A stretch of 45,913 nucleotides of DNA from Escherichia coli (GTDB lineage Bacteria; Pseudomonadota; Gammaproteobacteria; Enterobacterales; Enterobacteriaceae), in the NCBI RefSeq assembly GCF_003334785.1, contig NZ_QOWV01000023.1. One strand, given 5' to 3'. Positions 5,552 through 45,758 of this stretch are shown here, piece by piece. The position numbers and the translations under genes were made by a program. The notes beneath the pieces were generated by a model. It was not told the origin of the DNA, did no database searches, and saw only the letters and a list, made by a program, of their open reading frames with translations. Every line of letters begins with the position of its first letter. The first letter of the stretch is position 1.

Positions 5552-5660
5552 TGCCGGATGCGGCGTGAACGCCTTATCCAGCCTACAAATTTGTGCAAAT
5601 TCAATAAATTGCAGGAAATACGTAGGCCTGATAAGACGCGTCAAGCGTCGCATCAGGCAT
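5552..5660. repeat. REP/BIME repetitive extragenic palindromes between convergent phr and dtpD
   Basis: GCCGGATGCGGCGTGAACGCCTTATCCAGCCTACA and GTAGGCCTGATAAGACGCGTCAAGCGTCGCATCAGGCA are canonical E. coli REP units. Confidence 0.75.
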
Positions 5661-23005: not shown

Positions 23006-23126
23006 CCGTAGGCCTGATAAGACGCGCAAGCGTCGCATCAGGCAACCAGTGCCGGATGCGGCGTGAACGCCTTATCCGGCCTACAAGTCATTACCCGTAG
23101 GCCTGATAAGCGCAGCGCATCAGGCG
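23006..23126. repeat. REP/BIME cluster (three REP units) between sdhB and sucA
   Basis: CCGTAGGCCTGATAAGACGCGCAAGCGTCGCATCAGGCA, GCCGGATGCGGCGTGAACGCCTTATCCGGCCTACA and CCGTAGGCCTGATAAGCGCAGCGCATCAGGCG. Confidence 0.75.
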
Positions 23127-27360: not shown

Positions 27361-27625
27361 GTAGACCGGATAAGGCATTATCGCCTTCTCCGGCAATTGA
27401 AGCCTGATGCGACGCTGACGCGTCTTATCAGGCCTACGGGACCACCAATGTAGGTCGGATAAGGCGCTAGCGCCGCATCCGACAAGCGATGCCTGATGTG
27501 ACGGTTAACGTGTCTTATCAGGCCTACGGGGACCACCAATGTAGGTCGGATAAGGCGCAAGCGCCGCATCCGACAAGCGATGCCTGATGTGACGTTTAAC
27601 GTGTCTTATCAGGCCTACGGGTGAC
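27361..27625. repeat. Tandem BIME array of REP pairs: ~90-bp unit, ~2.4 copies
   Basis: Units at 27402-27490, 27491-27581 and partial 27582-27621, each GCCTGATG(C/T)GACG...GTCTTATCAGGCCTACGGG...CCACCAATGTAGGTCGGATAAGGCGC.AGCGCCGCATCCGACAAGCGAT. Confidence 0.8.
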
Positions 27626-43732: not shown

Positions 43733-44278
<546 letters not shown>

Positions 44279-44287
44279 GAGAATTGC

Positions 44288-45079
44288 ATGAGCAGTAACT
44301 TCAGACATCAACTATTGAGTCTGTCGTTACTGGTTGGTATAGCGGCCCCCTGGGCCGCTTTTGCTCAGGCACCAATCAGTAGTGTCGGCTCAGGCTCGGT
44401 CGAAGACCGCGTCACTCAACTTGAGCGTATTTCTAATGCTCACAGCCAGCTTTTAACCCAACTCCAGCAACAACTTTCTGATAATCAATCCGATATTGAT
44501 TCCCTGCGTGGTCAGATTCAGGAAAATCAGTATCAACTGAATCAGGTCGTGGAGCGGCAAAAGCAGATCCTGTTGCAGATCGACAGCCTCAGCAGCGGTG
44601 GTGCAGCGGCGCAATCAACCAGCGGCGATCAAAGCGGTGCGGCGGCATCAACGACGCCGACAGCTGATGCTGGTACTGCGAATGCTGGCGCGCCGGTGAA
44701 AAGCGGTAATGCAAACACGGATTACAATGCAGCTATTGCGCTGGTGCAGGATAAATCCCGCCAGGATGACGCAATGGTGGCATTTCAGAATTTCATCAAA
44801 AATTACCCTGATTCAACTTACCTGCCAAACGCCAATTATTGGCTGGGTCAGTTAAACTACAACAAGGGTAAAAAAGATGATGCGGCGTACTATTTTGCTT
44901 CGGTAGTGAAAAACTATCCGAAGTCACCAAAGGCTGCAGATGCGATGTTTAAAGTCGGCGTCATCATGCAGGACAAAGGTGACACCGCAAAAGCGAAAGC
45001 CGTATACCAGCAGGTTATCAGTAAATACCCTGGTACTGATGGCGCTAAACAGGCACAAAAACGTCTGAACGCGATGTAA
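44288..45079 (+). CDS. cpoB: Cell-division coordinator CpoB (TPR-repeat periplasmic protein)
   Basis: 263-aa ORF with signal peptide, coiled-coil and C-terminal TPR-like repeats; formerly ybgF. Confidence 0.93.
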   Translation: MSSNFRHQLLSLSLLVGIAAPWAAFAQAPISSVGSGSVEDRVTQLERISNAHSQLLTQLQQQLSDNQSDIDSLRGQIQENQYQLNQVVERQKQILLQIDSLSSGGAAAQSTSGDQSGAAASTTPTADAGTANAGAPVKSGNANTDYNAAIALVQDKSRQDDAMVAFQNFIKNYPDSTYLPNANYWLGQLNYNKGKKDDAAYYFASVVKNYPKSPKAADAMFKVGVIMQDKGDTAKAKAVYQQVISKYPGTDGAKQAQKRLNAM

Positions 45080-45243: not shown

Positions 45244-45319
45244 GGGTCGTTAGCTCAGTTGGTAGAGCAGTTGACTTTTAATCAATTGGTCGCAGGTTCG
45301 AATCCTGCACGACCCACCA
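45244..45319 (+). tRNA. lysT: tRNA-Lys (anticodon UUU)
   Basis: 76-nt GGGTCGTTAGCTCAGTTGGTAGAGCAGTTGACTTTTAATCAATTGGTCGCAGGTTCGAATCCTGCACGACCCACCA, CCA encoded. Confidence 0.95.
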
Positions 45320-45454
45320 ATCGCTAAGGTGGAAGCGGTAGTAAAACGTGAAGGATAACGTTGCATGAGCAACGGCCCGAAGGGCGAGACGAAGTCGAGT
45401 CATCCTGCACGACCCACCACTAACATAGTTAGTTGTAGTATCCAGCGTAGTATC

Positions 45455-45530
45455 GGGTGATTAGCTCAGCTGGGAGAGCACCTCCCTTACAAGGAGGGGG
45501 TCGGCGGTTCGATCCCGTCATCACCCACCA
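45455..45530 (+). tRNA. valT: tRNA-Val (anticodon UAC)
   Basis: 76-nt GGGTGATTAGCTCAGCTGGGAGAGCACCTCCCTTACAAGGAGGGGGTCGGCGGTTCGATCCCGTCATCACCCACCA. Confidence 0.95.
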
Positions 45531-45533
45531 CTC

Positions 45534-45609
45534 GGGTCGTTAGCTCAGTTGGTAGAGCAGTTGACTTTTAATCAATTGGTCGCAGGTTCGAATCCTGCAC
45601 GACCCACCA
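45534..45609 (+). tRNA. lysW: tRNA-Lys (anticodon UUU)
   Basis: Identical 76-nt tRNA-Lys sequence, 3 nt after valT. Confidence 0.95.
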
Positions 45610-45758
45610 GTTTTAACATCGAAGACAGATGTTAAGCGTGTAGGATAACGTTGCGTCAGCAACGGCCCGTAGGGCGAGCGAAGCGAGTCATCCTGCACGA
45701 CCCACCACTAATGACGGTGGGTTCGGTGGAAGTAGTTTGTAGTATCCAGCGCAGTATC

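Follow-up and report, generated by a model that had tools for sequence, protein, structure and literature searches.

The window, which is the whole 45,913-nt stretch of Escherichia coli DNA analysed here, ends in the cpoB(ybgF)-lysT region and stops at the 3' end of lysY. Its identity to E. coli chromosomes is 99.9%. The lysT operon consists of seven tRNA genes, of which lysT, valT, lysW, valZ, and lysY lie inside the window (Table 1). The placement of these genes by ARAGORN agrees with the limits that a preliminary description of this DNA had given for the two long spacers, 45320-45454 and 45610-45758. No cloverleaf was found in either spacer when tRNAs and tRNA pseudogenes were looked for, and both ARAGORN and the Rfam tRNA model returned the five real genes only.

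Table 1. Features of the lysT end of the window
Feature	Start	End	Strand	Basis or remark
tRNA-Lys(UUU), lysT	45244	45319	+	ARAGORN; Rfam tRNA, 79.2 bits; exact 18-mer
Left direct repeat of cassette 1 (last 18 nt of lysT)	45302	45319	+	
100-bp unit (body plus 18-bp repeat)	45320	45419	+	Precisely absent in some strains; also the predicted RtT-like RNA
Variable 5' linker, spacer 1	45320	45346	+	Alignments, fold; not conserved between spacers
P1 5' strand CGTGAAGGAT, spacer 1	45347	45356	+	Fold; consensus fold; cognate complementarity across tRNA types
Hairpin A, CGTTGC-ATGA-GCAACG, spacer 1	45359	45374	+	Stem invariant, loop differs between spacers; Rfam RtT alignment
Hairpin B, GCCC-GAA-GGGC, spacer 1	45375	45385	+	Rfam alignment, consensus fold
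GAGACGAAGTCGAGTC, spacer 1	45386	45401	+	Hairpin C and conserved right end GAGTC
Hairpin C, GAC-GAA-GTC, spacer 1	45388	45396	+	Within GAGACGAAGTCGAGTC
18-nt tRNA-Lys copy, right direct repeat of cassette 1	45402	45419	+	Exact match; Rfam; fold
P1 3' strand, spacer 1	45402	45411	+	Fold
Single-stranded tRNA-like tail ACCCACCA, spacer 1	45412	45419	+	Fold; Rfam RtT match ends at 45419
valT 5' leader	45420	45454	+	Unchanged in empty alleles; small hairpin CTAAC-ATA-GTTAG
tRNA-Val(UAC), valT	45455	45530		ARAGORN
tRNA-Lys(UUU), lysW	45534	45609	+	ARAGORN; exact 18-mer
Left direct repeat of cassette 2 (last 18 nt of lysW)	45592	45609	+	
98-bp unit	45610	45707	+	Precisely absent in strains 2017.13.01CC and AVS0068
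Variable 5' linker, spacer 2	45610	45636	+	Own 9-bp hairpin, 45612-45620/45628-45636 (fold)
Short-form RtT module 2	45637	45707	+	Sequence, Rfam alignment, folds
P1 5' strand CGTGTAGGAT, spacer 2	45637	45646	+	U-G at the mismatch position
Hairpin A, spacer 2	45649	45664	+	
Hairpin B, spacer 2	45665	45675	+	
GAGCGAAGCGAGTC, spacer 2	45676	45689	+	
18-nt tRNA-Lys copy, spacer 2	45690	45707	+	Exact match
valZ 5' leader	45708	45758	+	GGTGGGT (45716-45722) pairs with copied ACCCACC (45700-45706)
tRNA-Val(UAC), valZ	45759	45834		ARAGORN
tRNA-Lys(UUU), lysY	45838	45913		ARAGORN

Sequence and predicted fold of the two spacers

Each spacer had been described as containing an exact 18-nt copy of the tRNA-Lys 3' end, and exact comparison bears this out. 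The 18-mer ATCCTGCACGACCCACCA occurs without mismatch on the plus strand at starts 45302, 45402, 45592, 45690, and 45896, where 0.01 matches would be expected by chance. Three of these matches are the 3' ends of the tRNA-Lys genes, and each long spacer holds one of the other two (45402-45419 and 45690-45707). The hairpin CGTTGC-ATGA-GCAACG reported for spacer 1 is also present and has the counterpart CGTTGC-GTCA-GCAACG in spacer 2, while the additional stem attributed to spacer 2 was recovered from the sequence and from the fold as a pairing between the copied ACCCACC and the GGTGGGT of the valZ leader. The description of the spacers as near-duplicates, however, holds for a module of about 74 nt (45346-45419 versus 45636-45707) and not for the whole spacers, which are 83% identical. 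Among the four long spacers of the complete operon, the module is invariant at 62 of its 74 positions, the 5' linker at 4 of 26, and the 3' leader at 5 of 35; the positions that do vary within the module are hairpin loops or a single mismatch position.

Structure prediction also brought out a helix that the preliminary description had not noticed. Together with the upstream sequence CGUG(A/U)AGGAU (45347-45356 and 45637-45646), the initial 10 nt of the copy, AUCCUGCACG, form a closing helix, P1, whose sole position outside Watson-Crick pairing is A-G in spacer 1, where CGTGAAGGAT is otherwise complementary to 45402-45411, and U-G in spacer 2. Enclosed by P1 are hairpin A (CGUUGC-n4-GCAACG), hairpin B (GCCC-GNA-GGGC), and the small hairpin C, and the 3'-terminal ACCCACCA is left single-stranded. 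Minimum-free-energy folds show P1 and the hairpins with z-scores of -3.1 to -4.9, and the same helices recur when a consensus fold is computed from 15 short forms at Lys and Arg loci. The 5' strand of P1 is equivalent to positions 5-7 of tRNA-Lys joined to the 5' half of the T stem. In the fold, the closing helix thus imitates the T stem of the cognate tRNA stacked on its inner acceptor stem, and the body of the element takes the place of the T loop. The complementarity of P1 and of P2, a hairpin of the complete form described below, could have been inherited from the palindromic T arm instead of having been selected. Outside the module, GGUGG in the linker of spacer 1 (45328-45332) is able in the fold to pair with CCACC of the copied tail, and the lysY-lysZ spacer shares the linker of spacer 2.

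A coding function was considered for the 31-codon frame of spacer 1 that begins with the ATG in the loop of hairpin A and was rejected, as the ATG is missing from the other three spacers. A consensus scan found no promoter-like site, and its only terminator-like site was hairpin A read on the minus strand.

Relationship to RtT elements of tRNA and rRNA operons

The RtT covariance model (Rfam RF00391; curated gathering score, 45 bits) matches 45251-45419 with 58.8 bits and 45541-45707 with 54.9 bits, both above threshold and both ending precisely on the copied CCA. In these alignments the 5' part of the model is filled by the T arm of the real tRNA that lies upstream, and 44 nt are skipped. Spacer 1 alone scores 40.6 bits, below 45, as a 5'-truncated match (E = 4.4e-7) to model positions 51-130. 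Since the full matches borrow the T arm of the tRNA and the spacer by itself covers only positions 51-130, each long spacer holds a homologous, 5'-truncated "short form" of RtT of about 74 nt. Missing from both spacers is the 5' half of RtT (model positions 1-50), comprising GAUGAGAAC, hairpin P2, and UCGAGCG-n-GCGAGA; from this half only the 5' strand of P1 is kept, joined directly to hairpin A. The model alignment, the consensus fold, and the four-spacer alignment place the conserved core of RtT in both spacers, namely hairpin A, GCCCGNAGGGC, a third hairpin, and GAGTMAT. Hairpin B sits in ACGRCCCGNAGGGYGA, the most conserved stretch of the family. Each of the two elements immediately follows a tRNA gene of the same orientation and ends in the 18-nt copy, CCA included.

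The complete operon has five RtT matches, one each after lysT, lysW, lysY, lysZ, and lysQ. The lysQ-distal element, which is outside the window, is of the complete form and is associated with a duplication that runs through the terminator with a 54-bp repeat. It is the only one of the five matches that PGAP annotates (as 'RtT sRNA'), and the truncated forms of the lysT operon are unannotated in E. coli RefSeq.

RtT is an already known kind of element, and repeats of tRNA 3' ends have been known since the tyrT locus was sequenced. The primary paper on RtT is reportedly that of Bösl and Kersten from 1991; full-text literature searches with RtT terms and with the core sequence found nothing further. 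The prototype tyrT locus carries four RtT copies scoring 133-137 bits, and the annotated K-12 rttR (171 nt) starts 8 nt after the CCA of tyrV and ends exactly on the copied CCA. The lysT elements resemble rttR in their homologous core (hairpin A, GCCCGNAGGGC, hairpin C, and the right end GAGTMAT), in their position directly behind a tRNA on the same strand, and in a 3' end that copies the last 18-19 nt of the tRNA and is paired upstream. They differ in lying between functional tRNA genes, whereas rttR belongs to a distal tandem array, and in lacking both a tpr-like reading frame and model positions 1-50. A study of Klebsiella listed several "RtT RNA" genes of 166-170 nt with closely spaced locus tags, putatively those of the lysT operon.

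A scan of species-representative genomes with a 19-mer of the core listed many Gammaproteobacteria together with chance matches in high-GC genomes. Among the matches listed, the core was found behind tRNA-Tyr(GTA), Lys(UUU), Pro(CGG), Pro(UGG), Arg(ACG), and Arg(CCG) and, in several genera, behind 5S rRNA; the listed genomes with a tRNA-linked core belonged to the Enterobacterales, Gilliamella, Marinobacterium, and one member of the Nevskiales. An exact copy of the last 18-19 nt of the upstream tRNA is present in 51 of the 64 elements that have an upstream tRNA. The copy tracks sequence variants of the tRNA, and across the 64 elements it is never longer than 19 nt, its left boundary being fixed in the T loop. 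Most elements also carry, ahead of the body, a strand that is complementary to the cognate copy; half of them have a contiguous helix of 8 bp or more. Such strands include GGGGAAGGAU (Tyr), GCACCAGGGAGGAU (Arg), GAGGAU (Pro), GGCAGUU (5S rRNA), and GUGUGGGU (the Lys variant of Moellerella); in the lysQ-distal element of E. coli the strand is not clearly recognisable.

In an alignment of 27 complete, long-form elements, 88.4% of the cells of a six-helix model are paired, compared with 28-48% when the partners are slid. Fourteen pairs have changed on both sides, and none of 500 shuffles reached the observed covariation score. In hairpin C, which has no counterpart in tRNA, both partners have changed in four of the five pairs. 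Because G-U combinations in the paired columns (32) are not clearly commoner than A-C combinations (23), selection on an RNA strand is indistinguishable here from selection on a DNA hairpin. A further helix, P7 (GACUCG/CGAGUC), is paired in 73% of cases, shows little covariation, and competes with a local CUCG/CGAG hairpin, so it was set aside as tentative only. A hammerhead or kink-turn was likewise rejected: the GAUGAG...CUGAGU and CGAAAC of the long form are similar by eye only, their core nucleotides do not conform, and none of the Rfam ribozyme families matches.

The Rfam RtT model scores the long forms behind Pro, Arg(CCG), Lys, and Pro(UGG) at 82-101 bits and a 5S-linked form at 34.1 bits, and it does not detect the short form behind Arg(ACG), which mimics nearly the whole 12-bp acceptor/T minihelix of its tRNA. 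The part of the core that does not derive from tRNA is preserved nearly base for base from the Enterobacterales to the Oceanospirillales, Orbales, and Nevskiales. The long form contains, in addition, segments homologous to the variable region and T arm of the cognate tRNA, and in Citrobacter a tRNA-Tyr pseudogene is fused within its T loop to an RtT body. A near-identical repeat of 74-76 bp with the hairpin A-B-C core, preceded by a terminator-like hairpin, occurs at no fewer than 21 loci of Alcanivorax sp. 24, where the sole nearby ARAGORN call is a doubtful tRNA-Tyr(ATA); repeats of this type are also found in Salinicola, Pseudomonas, and Alishewanella.

Filled and empty alleles in Escherichia coli

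The copies prove to be the boundaries of units that are present in some strains of E. coli and precisely absent in others. In strain AVS0068 the CCA preceding the position of the first cassette is followed directly by CTAACATAGTTAG... The four long spacers of this strain are reduced to 35, 51, 48, and 33 nt and the distal element is absent, so that all five cassettes are missing while the seven tRNA genes all remain intact. In strain 2017.13.01CC the lysW-valZ spacer measures 51 nt and the tRNA-Lys CCA is joined directly to the valZ leader; the element after lysQ is missing as well, leaving a single terminator. Compared with the window, the empty alleles lack exactly 45320-45419 and 45610-45707 and bear no footprint. 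The breakpoints of these 100-bp and 98-bp indels are the tRNA 3' end and its copy in the spacer, and the insert without the repeat amounts to 80-82 bp. In an empty allele, the GGTGGGT of the valZ leader is predicted to pair instead with the real tRNA-Lys end.

Frequencies were estimated from evenly spaced samples of 60 among 5,429 genome records. The spacer-1 cassette was empty in 21 genomes and filled in 37 (roughly 35% missing), and the spacer-2 cassette was empty in 33 and filled in 26 (roughly 55% missing), all of which are rough estimates. Most O157:H7 genomes and the ST131 genomes in the samples were empty, and K-12 was filled. Because many strains lack them precisely, the lysT cassettes are dispensable. 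Comparison with related species, as the preliminary description had proposed, showed that Citrobacter werkmanii and Pluralibacter gergoviae carry a module of the spacer-1 type at the same place, and from this shared module the presence of the cassettes looks old. With the outgroups patchy, the simplest reading is that cassettes were lost when the 18-bp repeats recombined or replication slipped from one to the other.

Similar units occur elsewhere in the genome. Those of the RtT type that were found in E. coli all lie behind stable-RNA genes, at tyrT, lysT, the argV cluster, proK, and some rrn operons, and tandem arrays are seen at proK, tyrT, and the lysQ locus of Klebsiella. At rrfH-aspU a 20-bp repeat flanks two tandem units of 139 bp; filled and empty sites again exist within one species, and the two-unit array is complete in 574 of 5,426 genomes.

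P4-like integrases target tRNA genes, in some cases at the T loop, and duplicate a 3' segment of the tRNA at the attachment sites. The cassettes share with such sites a direct repeat that starts in the T loop and extends to the tRNA 3' end (sometimes beyond) and an insert that is lost precisely; at lysT, 18-bp repeats of the tRNA 3' end flank the insert and the empty alleles are exact. They differ in that the insert of an RtT element is only 80-120 bp, and at lysT is 80-82 bp of structured, non-coding sequence, with no recombinase gene and no link to phages or plasmids. Moreover, a single RtT body stands behind many different tRNAs and 5S rRNA, and an extra strand complementary to the target is present. 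A phage origin was rejected when BLAST searches of 50,697 phage records with the complete and the short element returned only bacterial contigs or tiny unannotated fragments. Carriage by plasmids was rejected too, since among the 29 of 72,556 plasmid records that match, many are megabase-sized, as chromosomes are, or match at the ends of the record. The elements also recall REP/BIME sequences, being short, hairpin-rich units that are often in tandem and vary between strains, with a related family that is dispersed in Alcanivorax. Unlike these, however, those RtT units that were found in E. coli lie behind stable-RNA genes, have gene-specific ends, and show no sequence similarity to REP.

These alleles also bear on the suggestion that the copies are relics of tRNA gene duplication and deletion. 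The part that stands is that, as the exact indel breakpoints show, the copies bound units which, at the DNA level, undergo duplication and deletion. The units themselves are not anonymous relics of tRNA genes but truncated members of the RtT family, with a conserved core of non-tRNA sequence and compensatory changes in their helices.

Proposed transcription, processing, and origin of the cassettes

The best explanation of these observations, and one that is probably correct, is that the spacers carry short forms of RtT as repeat-bounded, dispensable cassettes that are co-transcribed with the tRNAs and trimmed to an RtT-like by-product RNA. According to the available text of a study of this operon, lysT is transcribed as a precursor of about 1100 nt, RNase P dominates its processing, and RNase E is able to cut in the long spacers; in the model given there, the Lys pre-tRNAs keep 3' trailers of 133-150 nt that are removed by RNase II and PNPase and then by RNase T (PMC4176162). 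The cassette would be transcribed within this polycistronic transcript, and RNase P cleavage at the 5' end of the next tRNA would yield a tRNA-Lys with a 133-150-nt trailer. Following an endonucleolytic cut downstream, RNase II and PNPase, and then RNase T, which stops at CCA, would trim the trailer to the copied CCA. There the exonucleases would come up against the closing helix and the ACCCACCA tail, which is also where they halt on the tRNA itself, and because the cassette ends as a tRNA does, beside a helix, the enzymes of tRNA 3'-end maturation should trim it to that point. An endonuclease acting in the AU-rich linker would then release an RtT-like RNA as a by-product, about 75-100 nt long and of the kind annotated as rttR. 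Its accumulation may be low, as the available text of the Northern study with spacer probes describes no discrete small spacer RNA in the wild type (PMC4176162).

The origin of the cassettes can be read in two other ways. It is possible, if rather unlikely, that they are a mobile or formerly mobile small repeat that targets the 3' ends of stable-RNA genes, with the copy representing a target duplication or attachment site, and that their life inside tRNA operons is tolerated because host enzymes cut the repeat from the transcript. This would account for the recurrence of one core behind at least six tRNA genes and 5S rRNA with a gene-specific repeat and a fixed left boundary, as well as for the coexistence in one species of exact filled and empty sites at lysT and rrfH-aspU, the tandem arrays, and the dispersal of the A-B-C core in Alcanivorax sp. 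24 and the other genera. Yet no transposase or integrase was noticed with the elements, they are essentially absent from phages and genuine plasmids, and we know of no mechanism that makes both a sense copy and a complementary strand of its target. Deletion between repeats explains the exact empty sites equally well, and the module in Citrobacter and Pluralibacter suggests an old presence. Quite unlikely, in our view, is that the units are functionless, neutral relics of unequal crossing-over between tRNA genes that are kept by drift and gene conversion. Cassettes that are dispensable, polymorphic, and bounded by repeats would fit such a history, the Citrobacter pseudogene shows that tRNA genes and RtT do recombine, and the tRNA-homologous segments of the long form point the same way. 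The conservation of the non-tRNA core as far as the Oceanospirillales, Orbales, and Nevskiales argues against it, as do the compensatory pairs in hairpin C, which has no tRNA origin, and the invariance of the stems of the four E. coli spacers while their loops and flanks diverge.

With regard to function, the copies had been proposed to serve as decoy or genuine sites of RNase processing. A genuine processing site is plausible by analogy, because the annotated rttR of tyrT ends exactly on the copied CCA. A stronger proposal is that the operon requires the cassette as a processing signal, namely a pseudo-tRNA helix ending in ACC(C)/ACCA, a form of 'punctuation' that is cut by RNase P or RNase E so as to remove the long tRNA-Lys trailers and tRNA-Val leaders. 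P1 with its ACCC-ACCA tail is similar to the hairpins that RNase P accepts as substrates, for example the 4.5S RNA precursor, the minihelix mimicry of the Arg(ACG) short form would suit such a role, and the parts played by RNase P and RNase E in this operon agree with it. Nevertheless, AVS0068 keeps the same seven tRNA genes without any cassette, 35-55% of the sampled genomes lack one or the other, and the available text of the operon study reports no sequence-level cleavage site inside the spacers (PMC4176162). An essential role in processing or punctuation is unlikely because many strains lack the cassettes precisely, and we consider the proposal as a whole very unlikely. Any function that the cassettes do have would be non-essential, since between a third and a half of E. 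coli genomes lack them. It seems similarly improbable, to the point of being very doubtful, that the released RNA acts in trans as a regulator or decoy, either affecting the stringent response or 3'-end enzymes by mimicking an uncharged tRNA 3' end or sponging small RNAs. Lalaouna et al. reportedly found in 2015 that 3'ETS-leuZ and the internal spacers of metZWV sponge small RNAs. The RtT modules are like these RNAs in being by-products of tRNA operon processing that could act in trans, but they have no sequence relation to them and are repeated, polymorphic, and equipped with a copy of the tRNA end. The identity of the tail to the tRNA 3' end would favour such activity. The rtT RNA of tyrT is also said, at second hand, to modulate responses to amino-acid limitation (PMC4986893; bioRxiv 10.1101/2024.07.17.603846), RtT-family RNAs have been seen on Northern blots in Actinobacillus (PMC4986893), and RtT RNAs were reported to be differentially expressed in Klebsiella. 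For the lysT cassettes, a role in trans would depend entirely on the second-hand reports on tyrT; the short form, moreover, lacks half of the RtT structure, and many strains dispense with the cassettes.

A speculative and rather doubtful extension of these ideas is that the RtT body is part of a wider repeat family of the Gammaproteobacteria, made up of a terminator-like hairpin and the A-B-C core, of which the RtT form inserts or survives only at the 3' ends of stable-RNA genes. It would copy both strands of the terminal helix, be excised by the 3'-end machinery of the host, and be gained and lost as a repeat-bounded unit. If true, RtT would be a previously unrecognised 'processing-neutral' genomic parasite or a domesticated cassette.

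Overall, this analysis adds to the knowledge of RtT that the lysT cassettes are a shortened form of the element, that the family has a strict architecture, and that natural filled and empty alleles exist in E. coli. The conserved structures in the spacers of tRNA operons should accordingly not be assumed to be needed for processing, and the natural alleles make the 35-year-old question of the function of RtT directly testable.

Natural variation of RtT-bearing operons

The RtT cassettes, each of which combines an RtT body with a copy of the 3' end of the stable RNA upstream, number five in the complete lysT operon, and natural alleles of this operon differ in how many of them they carry. E. 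coli AVS0068 possesses none of the five, and E. coli 2017.13.01CC lacks two of the five; in both strains all seven tRNA genes are intact. In E. coli IH5 (L129), the first tRNA-Lys gene follows cpoB, and yrdA-yrdB-aroE then take the place of the remaining operon. This arrangement indicates that the chromosome has been rearranged at a tRNA-Lys gene, or that the assembly was joined there.

A different type of change is found at the tyrT locus of two Citrobacter genomes. The first gene is tRNA-Tyr-like, with an altered D loop and a GCA anticodon, and its T loop runs straight into an RtT body, with which it is fused; the 3' copy is degenerate. The fusion looks like a deletion that arose by recombination between the T arm of the tRNA and the homologous RtT hairpin P2.

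Within the window, a reading frame of 31 codons (MSNGPKGETKSSHPARPTTNIVSCSIQRSIG) begins in spacer 1, the lysT-valT spacer, at an ATG within the hairpin A loop, and extends into valT. This ATG is present in spacer 1 only and is missing from the other spacers. A scan of the whole window for other known RNA elements returned the CpoB/ybgF thermometer (142 bits), three matches to the REP-derived naRNA4, and ES036.

Features located in the window and at comparison loci (L-numbers)
Feature	Source	Coordinates	Strand
31-codon reading frame	window	45365-45460	
Other known RNA elements	window	44179-44317	
Other known RNA elements	window	23011-23081	-
Other known RNA elements	window	27453-27615	+
Other known RNA elements	window	5587-5629	+
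lysT allele, no cassettes	AVS0068 (L130)	1160-1960	
lysT allele, two cassettes absent	2017.13.01CC (L128)	1440-2730	
tRNA-Tyr-like fusion	C. werkmanii (L015); Citrobacter sp. FP75 (L043)		
Pro-type RtT units	K-12 proK (L125)	250-800	-
Pro-type RtT units	other strain (L124)	470-900	
Arg(ACG) short form	E. coli argV-cluster spacers (hits H26-H29); L019, L044, L054		
5S-linked variant	E. coli OkiPb01691, rrn operon 5S-aspU (L126)	358-655	
5S-linked variant	L052, L066, L117, L119, L120		
Sub-threshold RF02902 match	L124	629-717	
Sub-threshold RF02902 match	L117	114-199	
74-76-bp repeat	Alcanivorax sp. 24 (L068-L088)		
74-76-bp repeat	Salinicola (L090); Pseudomonas sp. (L101); Alishewanella (L092)		

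RtT elements beside other stable RNA genes

Downstream of proK and its terminator lie Pro-type RtT units, each 166 bp long, which duplicate the tRNA end together with the terminator. In K-12 the first unit is complete and the next is truncated by a REP element, neither of which units is annotated, and a second strain has two units, both annotated 'RtT sRNA'. The 5'-truncated short form of RtT associated with tRNA-Arg(ACG) imitates almost the entire 12-bp acceptor/T minihelix (GCACCAGGGAGGAT ... ATCCTCCCGGATGCACCA). This module occurs, without annotation, in 5,290 of the 5,426 E. coli genomes and has no Rfam match at the Rfam threshold.

A variant of the RtT-type element was also observed in linkage with 5S rRNA. 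Its body terminates in a duplicate of the 3' end of 5S and the adjoining flank (AACTGCCAGGCATCAAATTA), to which an upstream GGCAGTT is complementary. In E. coli, the element consists of 139-bp units, two in tandem, inserted exactly between 20-bp repeats, and the K-12 rrfH-aspU interval (L127) represents the empty site. The full element, which is unannotated, occurs in 574/5,426 E. coli genomes and scores only 34.1 bits against the Rfam RtT model.

The RtT core in a dispersed repeat and possibly in RF02902

The RtT core bears a weak likeness to Rfam RF02902, 'Aggregatibacter sRNA 22', with scores of 21-24 bits that fall below the threshold of 39.8. RF02902 may be the Pasteurellaceae version of this core, filed as a separate family.

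In Alcanivorax sp. 24, a near-identical repeat of 74-76 bp is found at no fewer than 21 loci, often as two or three units in tandem. The sole tRNA call near it, a tRNA-Tyr with anticodon ATA (L074), looks spurious. Each repeat begins with a terminator-like hairpin (AAAATTGCCGGGAGCAATTTT), followed by AACGTTGC-n-GCGACG, GCCCGNAGGGTGA, a hairpin and TCAT. An identical hairpin, AAAATCGTCGGGAACGATTTT, is shared with a lysQ-distal element from an Enterobacter (L017). The core of three small hairpins (A, B and C) in this dispersed repeat is the same as the RtT core.
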